Source: an uncultured Chromatiales bacterium (GTDB taxonomy: Bacteria > Bacteroidota > Ignavibacteria > SZUA-365 > CAYQST01). From it: a stretch of DNA of 64,000 nucleotides. This document shows positions 4,262-64,000 of the stretch, in pieces; positions within the stretch are counted from its first letter, which is position 1; every line of letters begins with the position of its first letter. The stretch spans positions 32,160 through 96,159 of the forward strand of contig CAYUYM010000001.1 of the NCBI GenBank assembly GCA_964449305.1. The letters are read 5' to 3'. A program made the position numbers and the translations under genes. The notes beneath the pieces are model-generated. The model had not been told where the DNA came from, ran no database searches, and saw only the letters and a list, made by a program, of their open reading frames with translations.

Positions 4262-4443
4262 GCCGCCTCCATTCCGTCCAGACAGTGGGGCTCGATTCCG
4301 GGTTACCTGGTCGCCCCCGGCTGGGTGTAAAATATTGCGCCGCAGCGAATGTCCATATTTTGGTATTTTCGAAACGATGTGCCGGTGTCGCATCGGCAGT
4401 GCGCCGATGCCGCCCTCGCCGGCCGTGCAAAGAGCGCGATTCC

Positions 4444-6371: not shown

Positions 6372-6392
6372 CATCCACGGGCGGTACGCGGA

Positions 6393-22131: not shown

Positions 22132-22171
22132 TCGACTGCTGTCCCGCTCCGCGGGGCAGCCCACAATTGGT

Positions 22172-22209
22172 GGGGCATGGTGGAAACGCCATGCCCCATT
22201 GCTTTCTCC
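22172..22209 (+). terminator. Rho-independent terminator after paralog B
   Basis: The hairpin is GGGGCATGG-tggaaacg-CCATGCCCC, a 9-bp perfect stem, followed by ATTGCTTTCTCC. Confidence 0.65.
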
Positions 22210-22335
22210 CGGCCGTCTCCCCCCCCGCGATAAAAAGGCGCATTGGCCACCTTGCATATCCGTAATCGACACGCTATCTTTCCGACGTCATCTTTACGCA
22301 GCAAAAAACCATTCACCATAAGGAAAGGAGATTCC

Positions 22336-46133: not shown

Positions 46134-46244
46134 GGGGTGCTCCTTTCTGCTCTTTCGAGGGGCCCATCCGGGCTTTTTCTTGCTGATGTGATTTTGTAAC
46201 TTGACTCGCTTGAAACAGGCACTGGCCATTCGCAGGATAAAAGT

Positions 46245-47021: not shown

Positions 47022-47025
47022 TGCG

Positions 47026-47949
47026 ATGACCTCCGGGCTCAAGGCGCCGTATGTGCTGGCGCGCATCTTTCAGATCGCCGTGGCGCTGATCCTGATCTTC
47101 GCCGCTGTTCTCAAGGCTTTCGACCCTGAGGCCTTCGCCCTGCAGATCGCCGAGTATGGCATCTTTCCGGACCTGGCAGGCATCGGGGCGTGGGGATTCC
47201 TCCTTGCCGAGTTCACCCTCGGAGCGTTTCTCATTCTGAACCTGTACTCCCGCCTCACCAACCTCGCCACCATCGCCCTGCTTGCCCTGTTCATCGGGGT
47301 CACGTTCTATGCGATGCAAAACGGTGTCATGGAAAACTGCGGATGCTTCGGCAACCTCGTCCACAGGCCGCCCACCCAGGTGATGCTCGAGGATGCGGTG
47401 ATGTTGCTTGCTGTGTCGTATTCCACCTTTGTCCTGTGGAACAGCGATCCGATCGCCATCAAGCCGCGGGTGATCATTGCGAGCATCTTCGTGGTGCTTG
47501 CCATGGCGACGGCCGTCTTCAGTCGTCATCTGCCGGTTGACAACTATGTCACCGAGCTTCGCCCCGGGGTCAGGCCCCAGCCATGGTTGTCGCAGAACCT
47601 CCGTGTGGATCTGGCCGAGGGGAACTTCATGGTGTTTCTTGTGTCGATGCTGGCCGACAATTTTCCCGATCAGGCGCGGCGGATCTCTCTCATCAGCCAG
47701 AACCTGCCCGACCAGGTGCTTCCCGTGGTTCTGATCGTGGATCCGGCGGACGAGCTTGTCAAGCTCACGTTCCAGTACGGCATCGCCTGCCCGGCCGGCT
47801 GGGTCGACAGCAAGGCGGCGCGGCGGCTCTATCGGACGCTGCCTCGAAGCTTCCTGATCCGTGACGGGCGCATCACCCGCGTGTGGAACGGCATCGCCGC
47901 CATGTCCGACATCACCCCCATGCTTGCCGCGCCAGCCACAGACCAGTGA
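47026..47949 (+). CDS. MauE/DoxX-family membrane protein with C-terminal redoxin-like domain
   Basis: The N-terminus has 4-5 TM helices and a CGCFGN motif. The C-terminal roughly 120 aa have a TlpA/redoxin-like fold but no CxxC. It is probably cotranscribed with the upstream thioredoxin-like gene. Confidence 0.5.
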   Translation: MTSGLKAPYVLARIFQIAVALILIFAAVLKAFDPEAFALQIAEYGIFPDLAGIGAWGFLLAEFTLGAFLILNLYSRLTNLATIALLALFIGVTFYAMQNGVMENCGCFGNLVHRPPTQVMLEDAVMLLAVSYSTFVLWNSDPIAIKPRVIIASIFVVLAMATAVFSRHLPVDNYVTELRPGVRPQPWLSQNLRVDLAEGNFMVFLVSMLADNFPDQARRISLISQNLPDQVLPVVLIVDPADELVKLTFQYGIACPAGWVDSKAARRLYRTLPRSFLIRDGRITRVWNGIAAMSDITPMLAAPATDQ

Positions 47950-47960
47950 GGAGACCCCAG

Positions 47961-48512
47961 ATGCGACGAATCCGGATCTACACACGCAAGGGTGACACGG
48001 GTGGCACCGTTCTGATGGGGGGAAGAAAGGTGGGGAAGGACAGCCTCCGCGTGGAGGGGTATGGGACGGTTGACGAGCTGAACTCGTTTGTCGGTCTCGC
48101 CCAGGCAGCAGTCAGCAATGAAACGCTGATGGAGGTGCTCACCCACACACAGAACGAGCTCTTTGTGCTGGGAGCCGATCTTGCGACGCCGATGGACGTG
48201 ACATCAGATTCCGTCATCCGCATCACCGACCAGGCCATCGAGCGCATGGAGAAGGTCATCGACCTTCTCGAGGATGAGCTGCCGCCCATCCGGTTCTTCA
48301 TCCTTCCCGGAGGTGAAGAAGGCGCGGCCCGCCTGCACGTCTGCCGTTCCATCTGCCGCAGGGCCGAACGGCTTGTCGTCCGCCTTGCGGCCATGGAGGA
48401 GATCAACCCGGTCGCCATCGCCTATCTGAACCGCCTGTCGGATCTCCTCTTTGTGATGGCGCGGTACGCCAATCACGTCACCGGCACCCCCGAAACCCGC
48501 TGGACACCGTAA
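47961..48512 (+). CDS. ATP:cob(I)alamin adenosyltransferase, PduO/MMAB type
   Basis: The N-terminus is RIYTRKGDTGGT. The segments GTVDELNSFVG and RRAERR-like (CRRAERL) form the PduO signature. A gaggag RBS is present. Confidence 0.8.
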   Translation: MRRIRIYTRKGDTGGTVLMGGRKVGKDSLRVEGYGTVDELNSFVGLAQAAVSNETLMEVLTHTQNELFVLGADLATPMDVTSDSVIRITDQAIERMEKVIDLLEDELPPIRFFILPGGEEGAARLHVCRSICRRAERLVVRLAAMEEINPVAIAYLNRLSDLLFVMARYANHVTGTPETRWTP

Positions 48513-48520
48513 ACCAACCA

Positions 48521-49144
48521 ATGCCGCCCATGTTCATTGCCATCGCCGGAAACATCGGATCTGGAAAGTCATCCCTCACGCGCCTGTTGGAGCACCGCTT
48601 CGGCTGGAAGCCGTACTATGAATCTGTCGACAACAATCCCTACCTGCCGGATTTCTATGCCGACATGAAGCGCTGGTCCTTCCACCTTCAGGTGTATTTC
48701 CTCTCACAACGGTTCATCGTCCATCGACATCTGATCGAGGAGCCGGGCACGGTGGTGCAGGACCGCTCCATCTACGAGGATGCGGAGATCTTTGCCGCCA
48801 ACCTCCACGCCATCGGGCGGATGGACGACCGTGATTACGAGAACTACCTCGCCCTCTACGGTGCCATGACCTCGTATCTCCACCCCCCGCATCTGTTGAT
48901 CTACCTCCGGGCGGATGTCGACACGCTTCTCAAACAGATCAGGCTGCGAGGAAGGGATTTCGAGCAGAGCATCGAACGCAGCTATCTCGACCAGCTCAAC
49001 ACGCTGTACGATGGATGGATCGCGAAATACCGGCTCGGTCCCCTGCTCGTCGTGGACACCAATGAAATGGACTTTGTCCACGATGTGGGGGCACAGGATG
49101 AGTTGATCGCGCGGATCCACGACAGGCTCATTGCCATTGGCTGA
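48521..49144 (+). CDS. Deoxynucleoside kinase
   Basis: The P-loop is IAIAGNIGSGKSS. An ERS-like segment (QDRSIYED) and the dNK-family arginine-rich lid RLRGRDFEQ are present. Confidence 0.8.
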   Translation: MPPMFIAIAGNIGSGKSSLTRLLEHRFGWKPYYESVDNNPYLPDFYADMKRWSFHLQVYFLSQRFIVHRHLIEEPGTVVQDRSIYEDAEIFAANLHAIGRMDDRDYENYLALYGAMTSYLHPPHLLIYLRADVDTLLKQIRLRGRDFEQSIERSYLDQLNTLYDGWIAKYRLGPLLVVDTNEMDFVHDVGAQDELIARIHDRLIAIG

Positions 49145-49196
49145 CATGCGACCGGTCCAGGGTTGTCGGCGCCGCACCGCCGGGCACCATCACTCC

Positions 49197-51389
49197 ATGT
49201 GGTGGGTGCTGCTGTGCGCGCTGCTGGCTGTCGGTCTCACCCCGGTGCAGGCACAGACCGGCACGGTGACGGGCACGGTCCGCGACCCACAGGGGACAGC
49301 GCTGGCCGGTGCCAGCATCGTGGTGAAGGGCACGGTGCTCGGAGCAGCGACATCTCCTGATGGTGGATTCCAGGTGCGGAACATCCCTGTTGGAACGCGG
49401 GAGCTTGTCGTGAGCATGGTGGGGTATCGGCGCATGATCGCCCCGGTGGAGATTGTCGCCGGGACGGTGGCACGCGTGGACATCGTCCTTGTGGAGGCGG
49501 CGATCCAGTCAGGTGAGGTTGTGATCACGGCCGGGCGCCGGCCGCAGAGCCTGGAGGAGGTGCCGGTGAGCATGGCGATCGTCGACGGCCGCGACATCGA
49601 GCGGCGCAACCAGGTGAGTCTCGACGATGCGCTTCGGTACATACCCGGTGTGAACATGACGGAATCACAGGTCAACATCCGCGGGTCCAGCGGGTACAGC
49701 CGGGCGTTCGGGACGCGTGTGCTGATCCTGGTGGACGGCATTCCCCAGTTGTCGGGGGATGCGGGAGAGATCAAGTACGACGCGATACCGATGTTCACGA
49801 TCGACCGCATCGAGGTGGTGAAAGGCGCTGGCTCGGCGCTGTACGGATCGAGCGCGCTGGGTGGGGTGATCAATGTGATCACACGGGAACCGGAGCGGAG
49901 GATGACGCGGGCACGTGTGTCCGCAGGGTTCTACGAGCAACCCTGGTACCCGGAGTGGCGCTGGTGGGGGAGCGGGGTGCAGGCCTTTGGAGGCGTGGAT
50001 GTGCAGCACGCCGATCGTCTCGGGGCGTTCTCCTACATGCTCACGGGCGGCTTCCATCGCAACGCCGGGTACCGGCAGAACGATGATTACACGCGGTGGA
50101 ACCTCAATGGCAAGGCACGCCACCGCATTGACGGGCAATCCGATCTCGGTGTGTTCGCCACGTATGCCTCGGACAACCGCGGCAACTGGATCTACTGGCG
50201 CGGTCTCGATTCCGCACTCATCCCGCCGTCCTCAGCCGACCTCACCGAGCACATCGTCTCCACGAAATTCCAGACAGGAGCGCATTACCGCAGGACGGTC
50301 AGTCCATCATTCTCCTGGTCGGCACGGGGGCATCTCTACAGGACGGCCTACGACACACACAGCGACAGTTCCACCTACGAGTTCCGTCCGAATGACAGGA
50401 CGCAGTCCTCGGCAAATGCCTGGGGGTTGGAGGTGCAGGGATCATGGGCGCCGCATGCCACCGACATGCTCGTTTTTGGTGTCGATGGGACATACAGCAC
50501 GGTGGACGCCAGGACGTACGGACGGAAAGCAGGGTATTCCGGGGCAGTCTATGTGCAGAACGAATGGACGGTGCAGCCGGGGCTGACGCTGTCCACCGGA
50601 GCGCGCTTTGATCTGACACGGGTTGATTCCCTGGAATCAGCCAGCCAGTTCAACCCACGCGCCGGTATCGCCTGGTCGATGTTCGAGGGCACGACGCTGC
50701 GGGCCTCGGTGGGCAGGGGTTTCCGGTCGCCATCCATCGCCGAACGTTTCGTGCAGGCATCGGGTGGCACGATCCGCACCAAGCCCAACCCGGCACTGCG
50801 ATCTGAGAGCAGTGTGTCCTACGAGGCAGGTGTGAAGCAGATGCTGCCGTTCGGGACGATGCTTGATGTGGCGGGGTTCTGGAGCGACTACGAGAACCTT
50901 GTGGAGCCGACCATCGATCCTGCAGACGGGATGGTGCGTTTCGAGAACATCACGCGTGCCCGCATCCGTGGTGTGGAGATCGGCGTGATGGGGTCGCTGT
51001 TCCATGGGCTGTTCGAATACTCGGCCGGGTACACCTGGATGGAGCCGAAGGATCCACGGACCGATTCGACGCTCAAGTACCGTCCCCGACATCTGCTGTT
51101 CGCCACCGCCGGGGTGCAGCACGCCGGTGTGTCGTTGACAGCGGATTACCGGTACGTCAGCCGCATCGACGCCATTGACGATGCCGCCGGGCTGCTGATC
51201 CGCAACGCCGACATCCGTGTTGCCACGCAGGTGGTGGACCTGCGGCTTTCCTGGGATCTGGCATCCATCGCCATCCCGCTTGTGGCAACGTTTTCGGTCG
51301 ACAACCTGCTCCAATACCATTATTCCGAAATCATCGGCAACATCGCCCCGATCCGCCATTACACGCTGACCCTGCAGTGGCAGAACTGA
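49197..51389 (+). CDS. TonB-dependent receptor with N-terminal carboxypeptidase-regulatory-like (CarbopepD_reg) domain
   Basis: It has a signal peptide. The N-domain begins GTVTGTVRD...GASIVVKGT. The plug domain carries [29 protein letters not shown]. The 22-strand barrel ends ...LTLQWQN. A TonB box-like region is present. Confidence 0.85.
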   Translation: [730 protein letters not shown]

Positions 51390-51441
51390 CTTGGAAGGCT
51401 GAATGCAGAAAAGGCCCCGTCTCTGACGAAGCCTTTTCTTT

Positions 51442-51528
51442 TGGTGCGGAAGGCGGGACTTGAACCCGCATGCCCTTGCGAGCGCCACCCCCTCAAGATG
51501 GTGTGTCTGCCAATTTCACCACTTCCGC
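51442..51528 (-). tRNA. tRNA-Leu (anticodon GAG), type II with long variable arm, CCA encoded
   Basis: The reverse complement is GCGGAAGTGGTGAAATTGGCAGACACACCATCTTGAGGGGGTGGCGCTCGCAAGGGCATGCGGGTTCAAGTCCCGCCTTCCGCACCA. The acceptor stem and the T-arm GCGGG-TTCAAGT-CCCGC fold. The anticodon stem is CCATC/GGTGG, the loop is TTGAGGG, and the variable arm is 15 nt. Confidence 0.9.
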
Positions 51529-51537
51529 ATTTTCCTG

Positions 51538-51609
51538 TGAGGCTGGATGGGCTTGAACCATCGACCCTCTGCTTAAAAGGCAGATGCTCTACCACTGAGC
51601 TACAGCCCC
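51538..51609 (-). tRNA. tRNA-Lys (anticodon UUU)
   Basis: The reverse complement is GGGGCTGTAGCTCAGTGGTAGAGCATCTGCCTTTTAAGCAGAGGGTCGATGGTTCAAGCCCATCCAGCCTCA. The anticodon stem is TCTGC/GCAGA and the loop is CTTTTAA. The T-arm is GATGG-TTCAAGC-CCATC. CCA is not encoded. Confidence 0.9.
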
Positions 51610-51780
51610 TCATCTGCCGTGGTCAACAAATGTACAAAAGCGATGCGGCCTGCGCAAGCATCGCGTGCATTTTTTTCGCGACGCGTGAACGATGATGCCG
51701 ACTGGAGCGGCCGTGGATTGTCCGGGAGCGTCGCTTCCCCCATATTTGCGGGTGCACCACTGGAGGATGCCTCCCCGACC

Positions 51781-52452
51781 ATGAACCACGCACCCTGTGA
51801 TCTGATTGTCTTCGACCTCGACGGAACGCTCATCGACACCCGTCGAGACATCATCGATTCCGTGAACCGTCTGCTGGTGGCGCGGGGCCACGCCACGCTC
51901 CCGGACGACCGCATCATGCCGATGATCGGCCTCGGCATGCGGCACCTGGTGCGGGAGGCCCTGCTGGCTGCCACGGGATCGGATGCCGGGCTGGACCACG
52001 CCCTGCACGAGTATGCGTCTATCTACGAGGCCCACATGTTCGATGCGGCGGCACCGTATCCCGGGGTGCGGGAGGCGCTTCCTTCGCTCGAACCCGTTCT
52101 TGCCGTGCTGACAAACAAGGGAACCGCCTTCGCTGTACGTATGCTGGACGTCTTCGGAATGCGCGCGTGGTTTCGTCACATCGTGGGCGGAGACACTCCT
52201 CACGGTCTGAAACCGGATCCCACGGGGCTGCGGGCGATCATCGCCGCCTGCGGCACCAGCCCGGAACGCACACTGATGGTGGGGGATTCGGTGCACGACA
52301 TTGAGGCGGGGCGGGCGGCGGGAGCACGCACCTGTGCGGTGACCCACGGTTTTCAGCCGGAGGAGGCGCTTCGGATCTCGAGCCCGGACTTCCTTCTCCA
52401 CCATTTTGGTGACCTCATGGGAATTGCCGCCGGTCGTTGCTTTCATCCTTGA
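51781..52452 (+). CDS. HAD-superfamily hydrolase (phosphoglycolate phosphatase-like)
   Basis: HAD motif I is LIVFDLDGTLIDT. Motif II is VLTNK. Motif III/IV is MVGDSVHDIEAGRAAG. Confidence 0.7.
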   Translation: MNHAPCDLIVFDLDGTLIDTRRDIIDSVNRLLVARGHATLPDDRIMPMIGLGMRHLVREALLAATGSDAGLDHALHEYASIYEAHMFDAAAPYPGVREALPSLEPVLAVLTNKGTAFAVRMLDVFGMRAWFRHIVGGDTPHGLKPDPTGLRAIIAACGTSPERTLMVGDSVHDIEAGRAAGARTCAVTHGFQPEEALRISSPDFLLHHFGDLMGIAAGRCFHP

Positions 52453-52528
52453 TTCTCCTTACTTTCTTGTAAGGAAACTGTCGGGTTGATTCCTTACTCT
52501 GCATCCTACTCACAGCCACCCCGCCCGA

Positions 52529-53020
52529 ATGGAAGAGAATTATTTCGACACCGAACTGACACATGCCACGATCCTGTCACGGGTAAACACTCTCTACCAG
52601 ATTTCGAACGATTTGATCAGCAACATGGCCAATGTGGCCTCTCTGTTGTATTGGAGCATGGACGGCATCAACTGGGTCGGATTCTACATTCGCAAGGGGG
52701 ACACGCTTGTCCTCGGGCCCTTCCATGGCAAGCATGCCTGCGCATCGATCGCCATGGGGAAGGGCGTGTGCGGGCTTGCCGCACAATCGAAGAAATCCAT
52801 CATTGTTCCCGATGTCCACAAATTCAATGGCCACATTGTGTGCGATTCGGCCACCCTGTCGGAAATCGTGGTGCCGCTGATCTACAAGGGGCGCGCGATC
52901 GGCGTGCTGGATGTGGACAGCCCGATGCTTGACCGGTTCAAGCAGCAGGATCAGCACTTTTTCGAGGACGTGGCGCAGCAGTTGATGATCTCAGTCGGTG
53001 ACAACATCCCCAAGTGGTAG
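52529..53020 (+). CDS. GAF-domain free methionine-(R)-sulfoxide reductase (fRMsr/MsrC-like)
   Basis: The 163-aa protein carries WVGFY, the conserved Cys triad region HGKHACASIAMGKGVCG, and EIVVPLIYKGRAIGVLDVDSP. Confidence 0.7.
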   Translation: MEENYFDTELTHATILSRVNTLYQISNDLISNMANVASLLYWSMDGINWVGFYIRKGDTLVLGPFHGKHACASIAMGKGVCGLAAQSKKSIIVPDVHKFNGHIVCDSATLSEIVVPLIYKGRAIGVLDVDSPMLDRFKQQDQHFFEDVAQQLMISVGDNIPKW

Positions 53021-53209
53021 CGCCCAGCACCATTTCCCATACCGAAATTTCGCATCCCCGAAGGCTCGTATGCACAGGGCGGGTTGCGTATTTTTGGATC
53101 TGTCATCGGCGGTGCGCACAGTGCGCTCTCGCCGCGTTTTGCCTCCATTCCCCACATCGTGGAACCACCCGCTGACGCCACCCCTTTCCTGAGCAGACCC
53201 GCCGCCGGC

Positions 53210-54466
53210 ATGACACGTCTACGGCATCAGACCCTGTGGCACTTCAGTTCGCAGGCGGTGAACGCCGCGCTCGGCTTCGCCTCCACCGTGCTGCTGACCC
53301 GGACGCTGTCTGTGGAGGACTTCGGCCTGACGTCCTTCGTGCTTGCGCTCGTGCAACTCGTCTCCGTCTTCTTCGATTTCGGCGTCTCGTCCGCGACGAT
53401 GCGCCTTGCGGCGGTGACGCAGGACGCCGGAGAGGCCCGCGTGCTCCACGCCGCGTCGCTGCAGCGTGCCGCCCGCAACGGCGGGCTGTTTGCCCTCGCC
53501 ATTGTGCCGGTCGCATCGCTTTTCGCCCTGGTGGCGGAGCATGGTCTTCACACGCCCGTCCCGGACGGCACCACGCTGATGCTGGTCGGGGTCGTCCCCA
53601 TCCTCTGGAGCTATCTGCTGCTGGAGCCGGCCATCGCGGCCCTGCAGGGGAGGAACGCGATCGGCACACTCGCCCTCCTCCTTCCTGTCGCCAAGCTTCT
53701 CCATCTGGCGCTGTACCTTGCCTGTCTGGCCGGCGGCCTCGTCTCCGCACGCGTTGCGGTGCTCACCACCATCCTGGGGGTTGGCGGAGCAGCCACACTG
53801 ATGTGGACCCGGCTGCGGCCCGATGCGCGAGGAGTGGATCGGGGGCGCGAGCTTCTGCGTCAGGAGATCCGGCACTTCGGCCGTGAGGTGTACCTGGGCA
53901 GGATCGTGGACGGTGTCACGAACGGTCTGGACAAGGTGGTGATCACCCTCGTCTCTGGTGTGGCGGCTGGTGGCGTCTACGCCGTGGCCTTCATCATGAC
54001 CATGCCGCTTGGCATGTTGAGCAGCGCCCTCTCGGCCAGCGCCTACAGGCGTTTCGCCACCATGTCCCGCATCCCGCGGCAGGTGCTGTGGACGAATGCG
54101 ACCTGGTGCCTCGGGGGGGGTGTGCTGCTCGTCGCCGGTTGCGAGCTCATCATCCCGTGGATCTTTCCGGCGAAGTACGGCGACGCGCTTCGCGTGCTCC
54201 CCCTCCTGGCCGGTGGTGCTGCGCTTGCCGGGCTCAATCAGCCCTTCCACGCCTTCCTTTCGGCCCACCGCCAGGGGCGGGCGATCAAGGTCATGTCCAT
54301 CACCACCTCCAGTCTCAACATCGCTGCCAACCTCACACTCATTCCGTTTCTCGGCATGCATGGCGCGGGAATTGCCCTTGTATTGAGTTATGGTTTGAAT
54401 ATCTTGATGAACCTCCACTACTACCATGACTGGCGTACCAGTGCATCGAACGACCGTGAACATTAG
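53210..54466 (+). CDS. MOP-superfamily polysaccharide/oligosaccharide flippase (Wzx-like), immediately upstream of porU
   Basis: The 418-aa polytopic membrane protein has a Wzx-like N-terminus, QAVNAALGFASTVLLTRTL. A TGGCAC-like sequence lies inside the gene, but I do not treat it as a promoter. Confidence 0.6.
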   Translation: MTRLRHQTLWHFSSQAVNAALGFASTVLLTRTLSVEDFGLTSFVLALVQLVSVFFDFGVSSATMRLAAVTQDAGEARVLHAASLQRAARNGGLFALAIVPVASLFALVAEHGLHTPVPDGTTLMLVGVVPILWSYLLLEPAIAALQGRNAIGTLALLLPVAKLLHLALYLACLAGGLVSARVAVLTTILGVGGAATLMWTRLRPDARGVDRGRELLRQEIRHFGREVYLGRIVDGVTNGLDKVVITLVSGVAAGGVYAVAFIMTMPLGMLSSALSASAYRRFATMSRIPRQVLWTNATWCLGGGVLLVAGCELIIPWIFPAKYGDALRVLPLLAGGAALAGLNQPFHAFLSAHRQGRAIKVMSITTSSLNIAANLTLIPFLGMHGAGIALVLSYGLNILMNLHYYHDWRTSASNDREH

Positions 54467-54533
54467 ACGATTCCCTTCCATGCCAACAACAGCCGGCCCT
54501 GAGTTCCATCGCCGCGGAACACCGCCGCACAGA

Positions 54534-57500
54534 ATGGCCCGGGTTCTCCTGCTCGCCGCTGCGGGGGCATGCCTGCTTGCCACCTCCCCGGCTCGTGCAC
54601 AGCTCACGGGTCGCATCACCATTCTTGCATCGGATGCCCGGGGGATCACCATCGAATACCGTCCCGCCCTGACGAGGCGCACCATCGGCGGCGGTGCTGC
54701 GGCCATGACCGCCTATGTGCTCGACGGGGGAATCCGACCGGGATCGATGCAGGCGGGCGAGCCCGATCTGCCCTTGTACTCGCATCCGCTGGTGGTGCGC
54801 GGCCTGGCAGGCAACAGCGTCATGGTGCTCGAGGACGACTACCACACCGACCGGGACGTGGTGGTGCCGCCTGTGCCCTCGGTCAGGATTGATGGCGGAG
54901 TGGCAGAGGAGCGACTCGTCACGGGGCCGGCGTATTCGTCCGCCGGATTCCAGCCGGCGTCGATTGCCCGGCTTCGTGAGCCCGGGATCGCCCGCGACCA
55001 GATGCTTGCATCGCTCGAGGTGCACGTGGTGCAGTACGATCCCGTTCTGCGGGTCGCGCGCGTCCATGACCGCATCGTGGTGCGCGTGACCTACGGCCCG
55101 CCCCATCCGGCGCTGACCTCGGCTGCCGGGGATGCGGCGTTCCAGGTGGATGCGATCAATGCGGACCAGGCGGGTCGCTGGAGGCTTCGTCAACCCGCGG
55201 CACGCAAGGCCGCGATCTCGCAGCTTGCCACCGGTTCCTGGTACCGGATCGAGACGACGGAGGAGGGCATGTACCGCCTGCCGCTGTCGTGGTTCAGCGC
55301 CGCCGGCATCGACATCGCCGCGGTGGATCCCAGGACCATCCGCATGTTTGGCAGCGGCGGACGTGAGCTGCCGCCGGATCCGGACGCCCTGCGCCCGGCG
55401 GATCTGCAGGAGATCGCCATCCTGGTGCATGGCGAGGCAGACGGCCGCTTCGACGAGGGGGATTACGTCGAGTTCTATGGACGGGGATTGAGCGGTTTTG
55501 TCTATGACAGCATCGCCGGGCGGTTCCGGCACTACATCCATCGTTTCGACAATGCCAACTCCTGGCTTCTGACCTTCGGTGGGGCGACAGGAAAGCGCAT
55601 GCAGGGGCAGCCATCCCTGTCGATGCCGGCGCCGATGCAGCCCGCCTTTTTCCTTGGGAAGGACTTTGTGGAGGAGGAGGTGAACAACCTGCTGCTTTCG
55701 GGCAAGCTCTGGCTTTCGAAGAAGCTCACCGCCGGCCTCGGCAGCGCCAACCAGATCATCTACTCGCGCAAGCTCACGGGGTATGTGGAGGGGCAGCCGG
55801 TGCAGTACCGTGTGCAGTTGTACTCCGCCTCCGACAGACAGACGAGCAATTCCTTCACGCTGTCGGACAACGGCACCACCATCGGCATTGTCCCGATGGG
55901 CACCGTGGATTTTGACACCGACAGGGACGACATCGCTGCGAGCTCGGGGGAACGCTTCCTCACCTCGCGCGGGGCCATCGTCGACGACAGGAGCAACCTC
56001 ACCATCGCCTACTCGTGCAGCAATCCCGACCGCAATCGTGGAGGCTATGTGGACTGGGTGGAATGGTACTACGCACGCCGCTTCGAGCCGGTGAACGATG
56101 TGCTCGCCTTCACAAGCCCGGACACCACCGCCACCGTTGAGTACGCGATCAACGGCTTCTCGATGAGCGACATCCATGTGTACGACATCACGAACCACGC
56201 CGACGTCCGCAGAATCGACGGCGCCTCCATCAGCGGTGGGACGCTGCGCTTTCAGGCGGCCGTCGTGGAGCGCTCGCCCCGGAGCTACTTCTCCTATGCC
56301 GCGACGGCGTTCAGAACGCCCGGCGCGCCTTCGAAGGTGGAGAACAGCACCCTTCTCGGCACCGACGGGGCGGAGTTCATCATCATCGCACCACGGGCGT
56401 TTCTCGCCGCGGCGGAGCGCCTCAAGGCCCACCGCGAATCCTCCACTCCCGCGATGAAGACACGCGTGGTGGTGCTGCCGGACATCTACACGGAGTTCAA
56501 TTCGGGCGTGAAGGACCCCACGGCCATCCGCAACTTTCTGGTGCATGCCCTGCGGTCCTGGACGCCCGCGCCGAAGTATGTGCTGCTTCTGGGCGACGGG
56601 CACTACGACTACAAGGGCTACACCACGCGGGAGGAGATCCAAATCCCCGTCTGGGAGTCCGAGAACTCGATCAATCTGCTCGCATGCTATGTGACCGATG
56701 ATTACTACGCCTGCGTGGCCGGTTCCGACAGGCGCGTGGATCTCGGGCTCGGCCGCCTGCCGGTGATGAGCGCCTCCGAGGCCGATGATGCAGTGAGCAA
56801 GATCATCCACTACGAGAGCGGGATGGACTTCGGTGGCTGGCGCAACCGCGTCTGCTTTGTGGCGGATGACGGCCTCACCACGCGTGGCGACGACATGAAC
56901 ACCCACACGCAGCAATCCGAGACGCTGGCAGCGGGACTGCCCCCGGACATCGAGCAGAAGAAGATCTACATCATCTCGTATCCGACGGAGAACACCGCGC
57001 AGGGGCGTCGCAAGCCCGATGCGAACCGGGCGATCATCGACCAGATCAATGAGGGCTGTGTGGTGATGAACTACACGGGCCACGGCAGTGAATCGGTGTG
57101 GGCGCATGAGCAGGTGCTGGTGTCCGACGTGTCGATCCCGCAGATGCGGAACACCGACAGACTCACCTTTGTCACGGCCGCCACCTGCACCTTCGGCCTG
57201 TACGACCATCCGAATCTCCGGAGCGGCATGGAGATGATGCTCATCAAGCCCGACGGTGGAGCGATCGGAGCACTCTGCTCGCCGCGCGTGGTGATCTCCG
57301 GCCAGAACTCCGTGTTCAACGAGTCCTTCTTCAACACCACCTTCCTCAAGGGCAGGGATGATGCCGGCCGCGTCAAACCGATCTCCACCTCGGTATGGGC
57401 CACGAAGCAGACGCTCTACGGCGATCCAGGCTACGAGAAGTTCCACCTCTTCTGCGATCCCACGGTCCGGCTCCTGTTGCCACGATTCCGTGGCTCGCTC

Positions 57501-58550
57501 GATTCCATCGTGGTGAACGGGCAGCGCGTCGCCACGGGCCGTGCGCAGCTCCGGGCGCTGTCGAAGGTCACCATGCATGCGAGCGTGCTCCAGCCGGATT
57601 CCTCCGTGTGGGCGGACTTCAACGGCACAGCCCAGGCGAGCCTCTTCGATGCGGAGCGGCACGTCCCCATACCGGAATGGAACAACTGGTCCTACGTCCA
57701 GCCCGGCGGGCTGCTTTTCAACGGGAAGGCGACCATCAGGAACGGGCAGTTTGCGGTCAGCTTCATCGTGCCGAAGGACATCTCCTACGAAAACGCCACG
57801 GGTCGCTTCGCGCTGTACTTTGATGACGCGAGGGAGGATGGTGCCGGGTATTCGATCGACCTCACCGTGGGGGGAAGTGACAGCACTGCCAGCCCCGATG
57901 GAAAGGGCCCGGACATCGATCTTTTCCTGGACAGCAGGGCCTTCCAGCCGGGCGATGTGGTGAACGAGCGCCCGCGCTTGATCGTGGATCTCTTCGATGA
58001 GCATGGCATCAACATGACGGGCCTTGGCATCGGGCACAGCATCGAGTGCCGGCTCGACAAATCCGACAGGAGCATCGTTCTGAACTCGTATTTCACGGGC
58101 GATGTGGATTCGTATCAGAAGGGATCGGTGGAATATCAGCTCGACGGACTGGCGCCCGGGATGCACACCGCCACTGTGCGGGCATGGGACATCTACAACA
58201 ATTCCACGACTGCTGAGACGATGTTCCGCGTGGTGAACAGCGCCCGGCTGGCGCTCGAGCAGGTGGTTCCATATCCCAACCCCATGACCGACGCGACCGC
58301 CTTCACCTTCCAGCACAACCAGTCGGTGGCGGTGAACGCCGATGTCCGCGTTTACACGATCGCCGGTCGGCAGATACGGAAACTCACAGCGTCCAGCGTC
58401 ACCGATCGCTTCATCCAGATCCCCTGGGATGGCCGCGATGAAGACGGCGACCGGGCGGCCAACGGAATATACTTCTACCGCGTGACCGTGGAGACGGTGG
58501 ACGGATCGCTTCATGCAGAATCCACCGGCAAGGTGGCGATCGCCCGTTGA
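54534..58550 (+). CDS. porU: PorU-like type IX secretion C-terminal signal peptidase (gingipain/C25 family) with own CTD
   Basis: It has a signal peptide, MARVLLLAAAGACLLATSPARAQ. The C25 catalytic dyad context is MNYTGHGSE (His) and FVTAATCTFGLYD (Cys), with LLGDGHYDYKG. It is about 1338 aa. The CTD is PYPNPMTD...GKVAIAR. PorV lies immediately downstream. The antisense 1419-aa ORF 54339..58598 is shadow. Confidence 0.75.
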   Translation: MARVLLLAAAGACLLATSPARAQLTGRITILASDARGITIEYRPALTRRTIGGGAAAMTAYVLDGGIRPGSMQAGEPDLPLYSHPLVVRGLAGNSVMVLEDDYHTDRDVVVPPVPSVRIDGGVAEERLVTGPAYSSAGFQPASIARLREPGIARDQMLASLEVHVVQYDPVLRVARVHDRIVVRVTYGPPHPALTSAAGDAAFQVDAINADQAGRWRLRQPAARKAAISQLATGSWYRIETTEEGMYRLPLSWFSAAGIDIAAVDPRTIRMFGSGGRELPPDPDALRPADLQEIAILVHGEADGRFDEGDYVEFYGRGLSGFVYDSIAGRFRHYIHRFDNANSWLLTFGGATGKRMQGQPSLSMPAPMQPAFFLGKDFVEEEVNNLLLSGKLWLSKKLTAGLGSANQIIYSRKLTGYVEGQPVQYRVQLYSASDRQTSNSFTLSDNGTTIGIVPMGTVDFDTDRDDIAASSGERFLTSRGAIVDDRSNLTIAYSCSNPDRNRGGYVDWVEWYYARRFEPVNDVLAFTSPDTTATVEYAINGFSMSDIHVYDITNHADVRRIDGASISGGTLRFQAAVVERSPRSYFSYAATAFRTPGAPSKVENSTLLGTDGAEFIIIAPRAFLAAAERLKAHRESSTPAMKTRVVVLPDIYTEFNSGVKDPTAIRNFLVHALRSWTPAPKYVLLLGDGHYDYKGYTTREEIQIPVWESENSINLLACYVTDDYYACVAGSDRRVDLGLGRLPVMSASEADDAVSKIIHYESGMDFGGWRNRVCFVADDGLTTRGDDMNTHTQQSETLAAGLPPDIEQKKIYIISYPTENTAQGRRKPDANRAIIDQINEGCVVMNYTGHGSESVWAHEQVLVSDVSIPQMRNTDRLTFVTAATCTFGLYDHPNLRSGMEMMLIKPDGGAIGALCSPRVVISGQNSVFNESFFNTTFLKGRDDAGRVKPISTSVWATKQTLYGDPGYEKFHLFCDPTVRLLLPRFRGSLDSIVVNGQRVATGRAQLRALSKVTMHASVLQPDSSVWADFNGTAQASLFDAERHVPIPEWNNWSYVQPGGLLFNGKATIRNGQFAVSFIVPKDISYENATGRFALYFDDAREDGAGYSIDLTVGGSDSTASPDGKGPDIDLFLDSRAFQPGDVVNERPRLIVDLFDEHGINMTGLGIGHSIECRLDKSDRSIVLNSYFTGDVDSYQKGSVEYQLDGLAPGMHTATVRAWDIYNNSTTAETMFRVVNSARLALEQVVPYPNPMTDATAFTFQHNQSVAVNADVRVYTIAGRQIRKLTASSVTDRFIQIPWDGRDEDGDRAANGIYFYRVTVETVDGSLHAESTGKVAIAR

Positions 58551-58681
58551 ATCTGCGAAATGCAGCGGTATTTGCCACTTCCACAGGAATGGAACCAAGG
58601 TACCGAATTTTTGGGTTTTGAAATTTCGGCGATTTCACAGTACTTTAATTGTTTTTCTACTGTTACGATCCGAGGATACCG

Positions 58682-59845
58682 ATGCGAAACTTTCTCTCCC
58701 ACACTCTCCCACTGACGATGCTGGCCCTGTTGACCACCCTGTGTGCGGACATCGCACGCGCCCAGGGTGCGGCCTCCACCGCAGTGCCCTTCCTGCTCAT
58801 CTCCCCCGCGGCACGCACCTCCGCGATCGGTGAGGCAGGAGTCGCGATTGCCGACGATGCGTCCGCGACGTTCTGGAACCCGGCAGGGCTCGGTTTCCAG
58901 CGGGGGCAGGAGCTTTCCCTGAGCCACTCGAACTGGCTCCCGCAGTTCCAGCAATCCGATCTCTTCTTTGAGTACGCCAACTACAAGGGCTACTTCCCGA
59001 GCATCGGTGGTACGCTGGGCGCGGCATTGACCTTCCTGAACCTCGGTGAATTCGAGCGCCGTGGTGAGGGCAACGAATACCTCGGAAAATTCAAGAGCTT
59101 TGAACTCGCCTTCTCCACCTGCTACGGCACACAGATCGACGAGGATCTCTCGCTCGGTCTCGGCCTCCGGGTGATCCACAGCAGCCTGTCGCCTGTGGGC
59201 ACGGCGCAGGAGGCTGGCACAGGCAACGCGACCACGGTTGCCGGTGACATCGGCGTCATCTACCGCCCGTCCAAGTTCATGCTTCCCTTCGCCGATGTCG
59301 ATCTCGGCAACAGCTTCTCCCTTGGCGCATCCATCACCAATGCAGGACCCTCGATCAGCTATGTGGACCGCGCCCAGGCCGATCCCCTTCCGACAGCCCT
59401 CCGCCTCGGCGTCGCGATCAACCTCGTCAACGAGGAGTACAACAAGCTGACCTGGACGGCGGATTTCGCCAAGCTCCTTGTCTCCCGCACAGGGAAGCAG
59501 GCCGATCCGTTCACGAAGGCCATCTTCAAATCCTTCGACGTCCCGAACGTGCTCACCACCTTCACCTTTGGCACGGGCTTTGAGTACTGGTACTCGCAGC
59601 AGTTCGCCCTTCGCGCCGGATTCTTCCACGAGGATCCGAACCAGGGCAACCGCCGCTTCCTCACCTTCGGCGCCGGCGTGCGCTACGACATGTACGGGTT
59701 CGACTTCAGCTACATCTCCACCGACATCTCCAACGAGCAGAGCCCGCTGTCCAACACCCTGCGTTTCACCCTCTCGGTCGACTGGGACAAGGGCGGTGCG
59801 GAGGATGACACACAGCGGACACCCCAGGACGATTCCCGCAACTGA
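58682..59845 (+). CDS. porV: PorV (LptO) T9SS outer-membrane shuttle beta-barrel
   Basis: It has a signal peptide. The PorV N-terminal signature is AVPFLLISPAARTSAIGEAGVAIADDASATFWNPAGL. The protein is about 387 aa. The C-terminal half has a FadL-like barrel composition. The gene sits adjacent to porU, as in other T9SS loci. Confidence 0.75.
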   Translation: MRNFLSHTLPLTMLALLTTLCADIARAQGAASTAVPFLLISPAARTSAIGEAGVAIADDASATFWNPAGLGFQRGQELSLSHSNWLPQFQQSDLFFEYANYKGYFPSIGGTLGAALTFLNLGEFERRGEGNEYLGKFKSFELAFSTCYGTQIDEDLSLGLGLRVIHSSLSPVGTAQEAGTGNATTVAGDIGVIYRPSKFMLPFADVDLGNSFSLGASITNAGPSISYVDRAQADPLPTALRLGVAINLVNEEYNKLTWTADFAKLLVSRTGKQADPFTKAIFKSFDVPNVLTTFTFGTGFEYWYSQQFALRAGFFHEDPNQGNRRFLTFGAGVRYDMYGFDFSYISTDISNEQSPLSNTLRFTLSVDWDKGGAEDDTQRTPQDDSRN

Positions 59846-59983
59846 TCGCCGAGGCACGCAGGCATTGCATGACGCTGCATCGCCACACGACAGTCCCACG
59901 ATTTCACGCACCCCGCCCTCACCGGCGGGGTTGCGCATAGATACGGCGGTGTTCCCGCCATTCGCGACCACTCCGGACATTTC

Positions 59984-62900
59984 ATGAAGGTCACCATGCG
60001 CGCATATTCACGGCCAACCCTCCCGCTGCTCACCCTTGTCGTCACCCTGGGCATTCTCGCCCAGCCACCGTCGGCCGTCCACGCCCAGGGCATCATCCCG
60101 AAGCTCGGGCACAGCCTGCAGGCCGGTGTGCGATCCACGCTGAGGCCGCTGCCCGACACCATCCGCGTGCTGGCAGTGCGTGTGGAATTCCAGGCCGACA
60201 ACAGCAGCACCACCTCGGGGACGGGGAAGTTCGGCACGATCTACTCCTACGACTACGGGCAGGAGGTGATCGATCCCTACCCGCACGATCGCGCCTACTT
60301 CGTCAACCACATGCGCTTTCTCGAGAACTATGTGGCCAAGGTGTCCGGCGGGCGCACAACCCTGGTGGGCACGGTGCTCGACAGCATCGTGACGGTGTCC
60401 AGGCAGATCAAGGACTACAGCCCGCGGCGCGGGGAGATCGACACCCCTGTGGCGAACCTTGCCGTGGAGGCATGGACACTGGTGGATCAGCGCTTCCCGG
60501 AGATCGACCTGCGCGCCTACGACATGTTCATCGTGTTCCACGCCGGCAAGGGGCGCGACGTGGACATGACATCAATCCAGGGCTATGATCCGACGCCGCA
60601 GGACATCCCTTCGCTCTCCTTCACGCTGGACGGCTTCCGCAAATTCTACGGCCAGGAGTATCAAGGCATTCCCGTCCGTGGCGGGTCGTTCCACCTGACG
60701 AACTGCTCGGTGATCCCGACGAACGACAGCCGTGAGATCGACCAGATCGACGGAAGCAAGACGCTGCTCGAGCTCACGATCAACGGATTATTGGCGGCGA
60801 GCTTCGGCACCTGGGCCGGCCTGCCCGACCTGTTCGACACGAAGACCGGGCGCACAGGCATCGGCCGTTTCGGGCTGATGGACGGGGAATCGATCTTCGC
60901 CTATGGCGGCATCGCCCCGCCCGCGCCATCAGCATGGGAGAAGCAGATGCTCACCTGGGCGCAGGCCAGGGACGCGGCACCCGGCCGGCAGGAGTACCTG
61001 CTCAACGCAGGGCGCACCGATCAGGCGCTCACTTCCGGCGTGTTGCGCGTGCCCATCACGGGCCGCGAATACTGGCTGGTGGAGAACCGCCACCGCGATC
61101 CCGCTGGAAACGGCCAGCGGGTGACCATGGTCTCCGGCGGTCGCGAAATCCAGATGCGTTTCCCCAAGGACACGCTCGGCTTCGAGAACAGCAGCGTCGC
61201 CGCATTGAAGGGGGTGGTGATCGATGTGGAGGATCTGGACTGGGCGCTGCCTGGCGGAACGGTGATCGGCGATGCGGGGCAGCAGATCGCCGTCAATGGC
61301 GGAGCGCTGATCTGGCATGTGGACGAGGATGTGATTGATGCCGGACTCGCCTCCAACACCGTCAATGCCAATGCCGACCGCCGCGGTGTGGATCTGGAGC
61401 AGGCCGGTGGACCGCAGGACATCGGCAAGCCCGTCACCACCGTGTTCGGCACCTCAATCGGTGCGGGATCGCCGCTCGACTTCTGGTTCAAGGGCAACAT
61501 CTCCCCTGTCTATGCCAACCGTTTCGGGGCGTATACGCAGCCCTCCACCGCCACGAATGGCGGCGCCTTCTCGCATGTGGGGATGGACAACTTCAGCAGC
61601 TCCGGCCCGATCATCTCCTTCACCGTGACATTGGGTGACCAGCAGTTCGCCCCGATGACCGGCTTTCCGGTGGACCTCCGTGAGATGATCCACAGTGAAC
61701 GAAGCCGGGGCACGGTGCAGACCATTGATGCGACGGACGACGGGCCCGCCGAGATCTTCGCCGCGGTGACGCCCTTCGGCGCCGGCCGCGTGGACAGCGG
61801 CTACGTGTTTGCCGTGAGGCAGAATGGACGTCCGCTGCAGCCGGTGACCGGAAGCGCGCTCATCGCCGCGGTGCCCGACATCGTGGAATGGCTCGCGCCG
61901 CCGATCTGCCGCGATCTGGACGGCGACGGCGTGCTGGAGCTTGCCATCACCGCCCGGCGCTCCACCGGCACGGAGCTCCTGATTTTCCGGGCCTCCAATT
62001 TCATGGACGACGGCCGCTTCGATCTGATCGCGACCATCCCTGGCGTCGTCACCATGGCTCCGCTCGCCGACGGACCTGTGCTGTGGTATGCCGTATCCGG
62101 AACGGATGGCGACATACTGATGCGCTGGGGCGGGCCGGCATCGATCCGCATACCCGGCGGTGCCACGGGGAGTGTGCGGCTGGCGCTTGCGGGCGCCGAC
62201 CGGCTCCTTGTCGCGACACCGGCATGGCAGGGGTTCTGCACCCCGTCCACCGGCGTGTTCACGCAGGCCACGTCGTGGAGCGCTCCGGTGCGGCGCATGC
62301 AGCCGGGAGGAGGCGCAGTGAACTGCGTGAGCGCGGACTTTGACGGCGATGGCACGGCCGATGGAGCGGCCCTCGAGGGAGGGCGCATCCTGCTGAGCCT
62401 CTCGTCGCAGCACGGGCTCCCCGTCGGCAGCAGCATCCCGGTGACGATTCCGCTGGCCGCATTCCGGCAGACGCTGGCCGCAGCCGATGTGGACGGGGAC
62501 GGCCGCGACGATCTCCTGATCGCCGACAGCACGACGATGCAGGTGCTGAACCTCGCGCTCGCGTCGGTGGATGCCTGGCCGCTCGGCATCGGTGCACAGT
62601 ACGCCCTGGCAGCCCGACTCGGCGGTGACCGCCATGACGCGGTGCTCGTGGTGGAGCGCGGCATCCTTCAGCAGCGCGGTGCAGGCGCCGTGTCGAAGCC
62701 CGGCTTCCCCGTGGCCCTGCCGGAGAACGCCGCGGTGGCACTCTTCGGCGCAACGGCGGGGCAGACGCATGCGGCGGCCGTGGCGGCCGTGGGCGAGGCG
62801 CGCATCTTCGCCGGCATCACGACGCACGACATGGCCCTCAGCAGCCTTCCCTGGCCATCGCTCTTCGGTGGCGACGGCAACACCAACCGTGTGACGGTGC

Positions 62901-63208
62901 CACCGGGCGGCACGACGGAGCGAAGCTTCTTTCCGCCGGAGCGCTGTTACAGCTGGCCGAATCCCGCCTACGAGGGCGTGGCGAAGATCCGCTTTCACGT
63001 GGCGGAGAACGCCGAGGTGACGGTGAAGATCTACGACATCGCCGGCGCCACGGTGGACGAGCTCCACACCCATGCCATCGGCGGAGTGGACAACGAGATC
63101 GACTGGCCGCTGGCGGCGATACAGAACGGCGTGTATCTCGCCCATGTGAAGGCCACAGCTCCCGGGGCCTCCGGGGAGAAGATCATCAAGATTGCCGTGG
63201 TGAAATGA
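59984..63208 (+). CDS. Large T9SS-secreted protein with FG-GAP/VCBS-type Ca-binding repeats; N-terminal domain of unknown function
   Basis: It has a signal peptide. The DxDxDG repeats are CRDLDGDGVLEL, DFDGDGTADG and DVDGDGRDDLL. The CTD is YSWPNPAYEGVAKIRF...KIAVVK. No HExxH motif was found in the N-domain. Confidence 0.65.
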   Translation: MKVTMRAYSRPTLPLLTLVVTLGILAQPPSAVHAQGIIPKLGHSLQAGVRSTLRPLPDTIRVLAVRVEFQADNSSTTSGTGKFGTIYSYDYGQEVIDPYPHDRAYFVNHMRFLENYVAKVSGGRTTLVGTVLDSIVTVSRQIKDYSPRRGEIDTPVANLAVEAWTLVDQRFPEIDLRAYDMFIVFHAGKGRDVDMTSIQGYDPTPQDIPSLSFTLDGFRKFYGQEYQGIPVRGGSFHLTNCSVIPTNDSREIDQIDGSKTLLELTINGLLAASFGTWAGLPDLFDTKTGRTGIGRFGLMDGESIFAYGGIAPPAPSAWEKQMLTWAQARDAAPGRQEYLLNAGRTDQALTSGVLRVPITGREYWLVENRHRDPAGNGQRVTMVSGGREIQMRFPKDTLGFENSSVAALKGVVIDVEDLDWALPGGTVIGDAGQQIAVNGGALIWHVDEDVIDAGLASNTVNANADRRGVDLEQAGGPQDIGKPVTTVFGTSIGAGSPLDFWFKGNISPVYANRFGAYTQPSTATNGGAFSHVGMDNFSSSGPIISFTVTLGDQQFAPMTGFPVDLREMIHSERSRGTVQTIDATDDGPAEIFAAVTPFGAGRVDSGYVFAVRQNGRPLQPVTGSALIAAVPDIVEWLAPPICRDLDGDGVLELAITARRSTGTELLIFRASNFMDDGRFDLIATIPGVVTMAPLADGPVLWYAVSGTDGDILMRWGGPASIRIPGGATGSVRLALAGADRLLVATPAWQGFCTPSTGVFTQATSWSAPVRRMQPGGGAVNCVSADFDGDGTADGAALEGGRILLSLSSQHGLPVGSSIPVTIPLAAFRQTLAAADVDGDGRDDLLIADSTTMQVLNLALASVDAWPLGIGAQYALAARLGGDRHDAVLVVERGILQQRGAGAVSKPGFPVALPENAAVALFGATAGQTHAAAVAAVGEARIFAGITTHDMALSSLPWPSLFGGDGNTNRVTVPPGGTTERSFFPPERCYSWPNPAYEGVAKIRFHVAENAEVTVKIYDIAGATVDELHTHAIGGVDNEIDWPLAAIQNGVYLAHVKATAPGASGEKIIKIAVVK

Positions 63209-63240
63209 TGCATCGCGCCACCTGCCATCCGCTTCATCCC

Positions 63241-64000
63241 ATGCCGCGCATCATGCGCCTCACCCTCGTCACCCTTGTCCTGCTTGCATGCACGGCGCCC
63301 GGACTGCGGGCCCAGCCGGAGAACTGGTCCGCCCCCGACCGCGCGTGGTTCACGATCGACACGAAGCATTTCCGCGTGCACTTCCACGAGGGGGCGGAGC
63401 GCACCGCCCGCGCCGCGGCAAAGATCGCCGAGGAGGTGTACGGGCCGATCACATCGCTCTACGGCCACGAGCCCGACAGCCGCGTGGATCTCATCATGAA
63501 GGATCTGTCGGACTACTCGAACGGCGCGGCGTACTTCTTCAACAACAAGATCGAGCTGTGGGCCTCGCCACTCGACTTCGAGCTCCGCGGCACGCACAAC
63601 TGGCTGCGCAACGTCATCAGCCACGAGTTCACGCACATCATCCAGATGCAGGCCTCGATGAAGTTCGGCCGGCTGTTTCCCGCGGTCACGCTGCAATGGT
63701 TCGGCTACGAACGCGAGCGCCGCAGCGACGTGCTCTTCGGCTTCCCGAACCTGCTCATCTCCTACCCGATCCCAAGCGCGGTGGTGCCCCCCTGGATGGC
63801 GGAGGGCACGGCCCAGTACATGCGCCGCGAGTTCGGCTATGAAAGCTGGGATGCGCATCGTGACATGATCCTGCGATCCTATGTGCTCGCCGACTCCATG
63901 CTCACCTGGCAGGACATGCAGGCCTTCGGCAAGACGAGCCTCGGCAACGAGAGCGTCTACAACGCCGGCTACGCCTTCGTCCGCTACATCGCCAAAACCC
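63241..64000 (+). CDS. Secreted putative zinc metalloprotease (HEFTH motif), partial. It continues beyond the window end.
   Basis: The frame begins MPRIMRLTLVTLVLLACTAPGLRAQ, a signal peptide. It contains VISHEFTHIIQ, an HExxH motif. The track ORF 63288..63842 is in a different frame and is R/G/P-rich shadow. Confidence 0.45.
   Translation, partial: MPRIMRLTLVTLVLLACTAPGLRAQPENWSAPDRAWFTIDTKHFRVHFHEGAERTARAAAKIAEEVYGPITSLYGHEPDSRVDLIMKDLSDYSNGAAYFFNNKIELWASPLDFELRGTHNWLRNVISHEFTHIIQMQASMKFGRLFPAVTLQWFGYERERRSDVLFGFPNLLISYPIPSAVVPPWMAEGTAQYMRREFGYESWDAHRDMILRSYVLADSMLTWQDMQAFGKTSLGNESVYNAGYAFVRYIAKT

Follow-up and report, generated by a model that had tools for sequence, protein, structure and literature searches.

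In Porphyromonas gingivalis, the T9SS (type IX secretion system) sortase PorU cleaves cargo proteins that carry a C-terminal domain (CTD) and joins them to anionic lipopolysaccharide (A-LPS); in the attachment complex, PorU works together with PorZ, which presents A-LPS, and with PorV and PorQ (PMC8545088, PMC5562754). Both A-LPS and the attachment of CTD proteins require two genes, wzx (PGN_1033) and porS (PGN_1235), the latter encoding a protein with Wzx activity (PMC3684754, PMC6590471), and in flippase mutants the CTD proteins are without their A-LPS-modified forms (PMC3684754, PMC6590471, PMC8545088). Both genes (PGN_1235 and PGN_1033, PMC3684754) are part of sugar-biosynthesis loci, which are distant from porU and porV; porS adjoins porR/wbpE and asnB, which belong to the linking-sugar pathway (PMC7468200). 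Here we analyze a 64,000-nucleotide stretch of contig CAYUYM010000001.1 (hereafter the window), from an uncultured bacterium assigned to the Ignavibacteria, in which a gene for a Wzx-like flippase directly precedes porU and porV. The same linkage recurs in diverged lineages whose upstream genes differ, making this protein a candidate exporter of the glycan to which T9SS cargo is anchored.

To our knowledge, Porphyromonas and Tannerella are the only genera in which the covalent attachment of T9SS cargo to a glycolipid has been elucidated, and their glycan genes are dispersed over the genome. The porU/porV pair of P. gingivalis corresponds to PGN_0022/0023. In contrast to the P. gingivalis genes, the window flippase heads the porU/porV cluster and has no sugar-biosynthesis genes with it; by analogy with PorS and Wzx, it would be the Wzx-type flippase of the pathway that makes PorU's glycolipid. 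The locus shares with cultured Bacteroidota (P. gingivalis, F. johnsoniae) the adjacency of porU and porV, as well as a PorU that has the C25 His/Cys dyad and retains its CTD. It differs in that the pair is extended on both sides: downstream by the gene for an M6-like inactivated metalloprotease (M6i), followed by those for a HExxH/β-propeller protein and a DUF5683 protein, and upstream, in two lineages, by the flippase gene. We know of no description of either extension in the cultured models, and full-text literature searches turned up no description of a flippase gene beside porU/porV. Each gene belongs to a known family, and that T9SS attachment depends on a Wzx was known as well; new are the conserved physical coupling, in uncultured lineages, of the attachment genes with a stripped-down Wzx and the invariant presence of M6i after porV. 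A more remote parallel is the PEP-CTERM/exosortase system, where a protein-sorting transpeptidase is genomically tied to polysaccharide-biosynthesis genes (discussed for vimA and asnB relatives, PMC7468200); however, the EpsH exosortase and the C25 peptidase PorU are unrelated, as are the sorting signals and the secretion routes.

The flippase and its cluster

Five co-directional genes fill the right end of the window (53210-64000, Table 1), in the order flippase, porU, porV, M6i and HExxH/β-propeller protein. The flippase gene is the first of this tightly packed cluster. The initial annotation had placed the flippase, porU, porV and a CTD protein of 1074 aa here, and profile matches above cut-off confirm all four. 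A scan of 51400-64000 for sigma-70 promoters and terminators, which gave fewer sites than shuffled controls, found no site of either kind, promoter- or terminator-like, between the cluster genes.

The flippase matches two PST families in Pfam, PF01943 Polysacc_synt (50.3 bits; cut-off 28.2) and PF13440 Polysacc_synt_3 (40.1 bits; cut-off 23). No NCBIfam model scored above its cut-off, the flippase equivalogs all falling far below theirs, and neither the MurJ/MVF models (PF03023, TIGR01695) nor MatE were matched in the Pfam and NCBIfam searches. The AlphaFold2 (AF2) model, built on eight homologues, is all-helical (pLDDT 86.8, pTM 0.86). When compared with the PDB by Foldseek, its top matches are five structures of WzxE, the lipid III flippase of E. 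coli, with TM-scores of 0.64-0.72 (the best being 9g9n, at 0.72); MATE structures rank below these and MurJ structures lower still. WzxE (PDB 9g95, 9g9n) and the window protein are of equal length (~415 aa) and share the fold of 12 transmembrane helices typical of the MOP superfamily, but are merely 16-18% identical. The gene for WzxE is located in the biosynthesis cluster for enterobacterial common antigen and is unconnected to any secretion system. Because the Pfam matches to PST families exceed their cut-offs and the AF2 fold resembles that of WzxE, the label of Wzx-like MOP flippase is correct; by profile matches and predicted structure, the gene product is a 12-helix, Wzx-type flippase of the PST family.

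PorU is recognized by NF033707 (939.8 bits; cut-off 420) and Peptidase_C25 (297.8 bits). Its CTD, already reported in the initial annotation, matches TIGR04183 (29.4 bits; cut-off 23). The catalytic residues His850 (in GHG) and Cys885 (in ATC) are invariant in an alignment of 12 PorU sequences with members down to 31% identity. A signal peptide follows the Met codon at 54534, which is separated from the flippase stop by 67 nt. The porV start lies 131 nt downstream of porU and also leads into a signal peptide; PorV is matched by NF033710 (256.7 bits; cut-off 250), PF19572 (108 bits) and a PorV/PorQ subfamily model (312 bits).

The fourth gene had been described as FG-GAP cargo. A CTD protein does follow PorV (Por_Secre_tail, 28.2 bits against a cut-off of 27; TIGR04183, 23.1 bits against 23), but the FG-GAP signal is weak, and the protein is recognized as an M6-like pseudo-protease (NF052323, 714.9 bits; cut-off 600) that is a conserved member of the cluster rather than an arbitrary cargo. 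The M6 zinc motif, HExxHxxGLPDLYD, is replaced in the window protein by ASFGTWAGLPDLFD. No HExxH is present in this protein or in 66 homologues, all of which read (A/S)S(F/V/I)(G/A)(T/S/N)xxGLPDLFD at the site. A profile search of PDB sequences gave weak matches to β-propellers and nothing stronger. The replaced motif in all 66 homologues and the invariant position after porV (57/57 evaluable loci) suggest that M6i serves the attachment complex in an accessory capacity and is not ordinary cargo.

The ATG of the fifth gene overlaps the M6i stop, and the part of the gene inside the window encodes an intact HEFTH zinc motif. Its counterparts in relatives are ~1030 aa long, contain Tricorn_N/PD40/TolB-like β-propellers and are followed by a DUF5683 gene. 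Homologues occupy the same position in loci L001, L004, L027, L028 (16571-19639) and L033 (13554-16649); the HExxH/propeller and DUF5683 genes are kept downstream of porU-porV-M6i in several lineages.

Conservation of the flippase-porU/porV junction

The genes upstream of the flippase are, in order, dapD (on the minus strand) and those for a thioredoxin-like protein, a MauE/BT_3928-like protein, a PduO adenosyltransferase, a deoxynucleoside kinase and a TonB-dependent receptor, followed by two tRNA genes and the genes for a HAD phosphatase and a small GAF protein. Glycan-biosynthesis genes are absent from this interval, and an O-antigen or exopolysaccharide (EPS) cluster extending upstream, to which the flippase might have belonged, is thereby ruled out.

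The window flippase is rare. A word-indexed search of 5.8 billion proteins yielded eight matches, with identities of up to 53%. When one genome per species was scanned, orthologues (37-41% identity) were identified in 21 species known from metagenome-assembled genomes (MAGs), labelled as Bacteroidota, Ignavibacteria or Chlorobiota bacterium. The order flippase-porU-porV-M6i is found in 21/21 of these species, wherever the contig is long enough. In about 20 MAG species (L004-L022), the entire 18-kb block from dapD to M6i (45294-63208), including every protein gene listed above, is collinear with the window although the proteins are only 40-70% identical, and the GAF gene directly precedes the flippase in every member of the window's clade.

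Among 1.84 billion representative proteins, a profile search revealed a graded family, with 318 matches below 1e-30, mostly of ~410-430 aa; a third homologue search (alignment A3) added almost no new members. Genomic contexts were examined for members outside the syntenic clade. Two of these, P0072 (32% identity to the window flippase; L031) and P0222 (28%; L034), are encoded directly ahead of porU, porV and M6i, with ackA, POR, TonB-dependent receptor and HIT genes upstream in the first case and polyphosphate kinase (PPK), CapK-like and PGA_cap genes in the second. In L033 (8001-13445), the flippase gene (P0071, 33% identity), which has a response regulator gene upstream, is followed by porV, M6i and the HExxH/propeller and DUF5683 genes, with porU missing between; here the flippase gene overlaps the porV start by 4 bp and thus remains with porV-M6i where porU is encoded elsewhere.

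Linked flippases at 28-33% identity come from lineages of 27-51% GC whose upstream genes are unrelated, and all flippase-linked loci together span GC fractions of 0.27 to 0.62. The junction itself is tight. Five loci (L031, L033, L034, L035 and L038) have a 4-bp overlap (ATGA) between the flippase stop and the ATG of the next gene, an ATG that leads straight into a signal peptide; in L044, 2 nt separate the flippase gene from porU. The 4-bp overlaps imply a single transcript. The directly upstream gene, on the other hand, varies among the linked lineages (GAF, HIT, response regulator, divergent glgA, PGA_cap): the upstream flank has been replaced at least five times, with the flippase-porU/porV junction intact throughout. 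This recurrence in diverged lineages with different flanks makes the adjacency more than chance and shows that this flippase subfamily has kept its physical linkage with porU (or porV) over deep divergence. The comparison with relatives that the initial annotation had called for thus favors the association, which holds beyond the MAG species collinear with the window.

In a neighbor-joining tree of the flippases, the window's clade groups with P0069, P0071, P0072, L035 and L038 (clade G1, 24 tips), and the context is known for 15 members of G1, every one of which is T9SS-linked. The other linked group, G2 (L044, P0222/P0075), lies in a poorly resolved part of the tree. Both groups recur in the PorU tree, which indicates co-inheritance of the flippase and the attachment genes. 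The pattern would fit either one old recruitment with subsequent losses or two separate recruitments.

In the G2 loci L034 (2771-7996) and L044 (90-4692), the flippase is preceded by genes for PPK, a protein of 441-442 aa and a CapA-like protein (PGA_cap). The second of these proteins had a precomputed CapK_C match in L034 that the Pfam scan did not reproduce. These upstream genes of the low-GC G2 loci may encode glycan- or capsule-modifying partners.

Extent of the association and flippase relatives

A metagenome scan seeded with a PorU alignment, and hence independent of the flippase searches, collected 80 loci (L035-L114), of which 62 extend at least 1.5 kb upstream of porU and could be evaluated on that side. 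A flippase gene lies upstream of porU in four of them (L035, L038, L041, L044), a Nth-like gene in 32 and glgA, on the opposite strand, in 11. Downstream of porU the order is nearly constant, with porV following in 68/69 evaluable loci. In the exception, L105, porU is split into two open reading frames (2849-6379) by an apparent frameshift or assembly error, and porV comes just after. The more distant L029 and L030 have porU alone.

The loci with glgA (glycogen-synthase-like, GT5) offer a direct comparison. In L035 (2463-5911), the flippase gene sits between the divergent glgA and porU, while in L045, L047, L049, L050, L052, L057, L058, L073, L075, L087 and L105, as well as in L027, glgA directly precedes porU and no flippase gene is found. 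The glgA-porU junction thus displays a clean presence/absence difference for the flippase.

Genes for glycan assembly (glycosyltransferases, sugar-nucleotide enzymes) accompany neither the window flippase nor its T9SS-linked relatives. More distant members of the flippase family reside among such genes. The gene for P0085 (25% identity; L115) is accompanied by AsnB, GT4, heparinase II/III-like, Epimerase_2, DegT and GFO_IDH_MocA genes, and that for P0110 (28% identity; L116) lies among GT4 and methyltransferase genes. An AsnB-type amidotransferase gene is found immediately upstream of the flippase in L115 (6155-9251) and in L032 (2-3067), neither of which is T9SS-linked; in addition to AsnB, L115 encodes WbpB-, WbpE- and WbpI-like enzymes. 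P. gingivalis porS likewise adjoins asnB (PMC7468200), and the arrangement in these two relatives echoes the porS locus; the likeness is only suggestive, AsnB-type genes being common in glycan clusters. Unlike the porS neighborhood, with its wbpE (porR) and asnB, the vicinity of the window flippase contains no DegT or AsnB gene. Fusions of flippases to enzymes are unusual, but seven family members are of this kind, carrying an S-adenosylmethionine (SAM)-methyltransferase domain (P0077, P0078, P0138) or a GT4 domain (P0081, P0083, P0139, P0170). The long proteins had been considered as flippase-PorU read-throughs, which was rejected once the extra domains proved to be GT4 or SAM-methyltransferase. 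One subgroup of the family comes from Streptomyces.

A possible role in anchor supply

The absence of an upstream glycan cluster and the persistence of the adjacency across differing flanks, often with overlapping stop and start codons, support a genuine functional connection of the flippase with the attachment module formed by PorU and PorV. What substrate the flippase handles, and whether it is dedicated to the T9SS, we infer from this link and from the P. gingivalis precedent. The best explanation of the locus as a whole, which we hold with about even confidence, is that the flippase provides the glycolipid that serves as the anchor for secreted proteins. It would carry a sugar unit, linked to undecaprenyl pyrophosphate, across the inner membrane from its cytoplasmic face to its periplasmic one. 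The flipped unit would become part of an anchor glycolipid, the analogue of A-LPS, which PorU would join to the new C-terminus of the cargo after CTD cleavage. Co-transcription with porU/porV, together with translational coupling in several lineages, would match the supply of anchor to the attachment machinery, and the glycosyltransferases, the ligase and the LPS transport steps would be encoded elsewhere. The dedicated anchor-glycan export suggested in the initial annotation is therefore plausible and partly supported, the conserved adjacency favoring the functional link; dedication as such would be a further step, and no anchor-pathway genes are present in the window.

Several observations weigh against so specific a role. 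No glycosyltransferase, WaaL, PorZ or Wbp/Vim gene is found within the 64 kb. Conservation of the flippase-porU pair within the window's clade says little by itself, since nearly the whole block from dapD to M6i is syntenic there. The link is confined to two lineages, and 58 of the 62 evaluable porU loci have no adjacent flippase gene. L027 and L028, whose PorU proteins are 36-38% identical to that of the window, keep the order porU-porV-M6i-propeller-DUF5683 without it, and L037 lacks it despite falling inside linked PorU group A. Finally, PGN_1033 of P. gingivalis serves both O-LPS and A-LPS, so that a flippase relevant to the T9SS need not be dedicated to it (PMC3684754).

The last point leads to the main alternative to a dedicated anchor flippase, namely a general-purpose Wzx that exports O-antigen, EPS or protein O-glycosylation units for the envelope as a whole and whose location in the porU operon is a convenient way of co-expressing envelope functions. 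We regard this as possible but clearly less probable than anchor supply. In its favor are the dual service of PGN_1033 (PMC3684754), the majority of porU-porV-M6i loci without a flippase next to them, the lack of accompanying pathway-specific glycosyltransferases and the occurrence of family relatives in ordinary glycan clusters. However, a housekeeping Wzx normally stays in its glycan cluster, whereas here the cluster has been stripped away and the flippase is held against porU/porV across genomes of 27-62% GC, with stop/start overlaps and even in the absence of porU (L033). Moreover, the window contains a second, different PST flippase.

Two further alternatives concern the meaning of the adjacency and the nature of the protein. 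The two genes might be neighbors through an ancestral accident that later evolution has yet to undo, and be functionally unconnected. The conservation of the complete 18-kb block in the window's clade, unrelated housekeeping genes included, would be in keeping with such neutral synteny, as would the restriction of the arrangement to two lineages and the evidence from L037 that the flippase can be lost. Nonetheless, neutral synteny is unlikely, because the flank has turned over at least five times around an intact junction, because the codons overlap by 4 bp and because the flippase stays with porV in L033 although porU has moved. In addition, loci with glgA upstream occur both with the flippase (L035) and without it, so the junction is not simply frozen. 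Less likely still is that the protein has a MOP fold but is not a glycan flippase, acting instead as a MATE-type exporter, as a lipid II flippase akin to MurJ or as an inner-membrane protein with a structural part in the T9SS. MATE and MurJ structures were also matched by Foldseek at similar TM-scores, and the NCBIfam flippase models all stayed under cut-off; yet the best fold matches are WzxE structures of equal length, and the Pfam matches are to PST families and not to MurJ (PF03023) or MatE. The WzxE-like fold and the fusion of family members to GT4 or methyltransferase domains make such a function unlikely, and the presence of other members inside sugar-nucleotide pathways also speaks against it.

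Returning to anchor supply by the flippase, one could envision a more complete version in which T9SS attachment in uncultured members of the FCB group is a self-contained operon: a dedicated Wzx would export a specialised anchor glycan, PorU and PorV would perform the attachment, and M6i, perhaps together with the HExxH/propeller and DUF5683 proteins, would be a component of the attachment complex instead of cargo, such as a PorZ-like presenter of the glycolipid. Taken as a whole, this version seems unlikely to us.

The flippase-porU/porV operon hints at a use of glycolipid anchoring well beyond the oral pathogens, and names a specific candidate flippase for the anchor. Flippase, sortase, shuttle and pseudo-protease form a compact set that could be transferred to a heterologous host to probe the requirements of the sortase. 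The invariant M6i beside porV is another lead, and perhaps a more general one, to components of the attachment complex that have so far escaped notice.

Other features of the window

Table 1. Coordinates of the genes discussed, numbered from the first nucleotide of the window.
Feature	Position	Strand	Size, evidence or location
Wzx-like lipid-linked glycan flippase (MOP superfamily, PST family)	53210-54466	+	418 aa, ~12 transmembrane helices; Pfam, AF2, Foldseek
PorU, T9SS C25-family sortase, type-A CTD retained	54534-58550	+	NF033707, Peptidase_C25, TIGR04183
PorV, T9SS outer-membrane shuttle/attachment-complex β-barrel	58682-59845	+	NF033710, PF19572, signal peptide
M6i, T9SS-dependent M6-like inactivated metalloprotease, type-A CTD	59984-63208	+	1074 aa; NF052323
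Secreted HExxH metalloprotease-like protein, 5' part	63205-64000	+	Signal peptide, HEFTHIIQ; continues past window end
tRNA-Leu(GAG) and tRNA-Lys(UUU)	51442-51609	-	Between TonB-dependent receptor and HAD phosphatase
Second PST-family flippase, weakly HfsF-like	4905-6371	+	488 aa; Polysacc_synt_3, 58 bits
CrtW-like ketolase	6393-7157	-	285 bits, below the cut-off of 350
NAD-dependent sugar epimerase/dehydratase	2610-3599	-	Near second flippase
Protein with T9SS type-A CTD	13014-14930	-	
Protein with T9SS type-A CTD	18787-20454	-	
Protein with T9SS type-A CTD	20362-22131	+	
Protein with T9SS type-A CTD	22243-24060	+	
Protein with T9SS type-A CTD	39667-42300	+	
Protein with lamin-tail domain, DUF5689, purple-acid-phosphatase N-terminal domain and two PLD-like domains	33385-36675	-	1096 aa

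The second Wzx-like gene, reported in the initial annotation as lying next to crtW, is real; its neighbor is CrtW-like but scores below the model's cut-off. This flippase gene, too, is outside any glycan cluster, being flanked by a UDG-family gene and the ketolase gene. Rfam found nothing beyond the two tRNAs, whose interval is occupied in L004 by a TPR gene. The window is rich in T9SS cargo, with five further CTD proteins, of which one is of the FG-GAP/ASPIC and one of the Sortilin/BNR type; the two CTD genes in 20362-24060 adjoin and are similar in size. To judge from its domains, the 1096-aa protein may be a secreted nuclease or phosphodiesterase.

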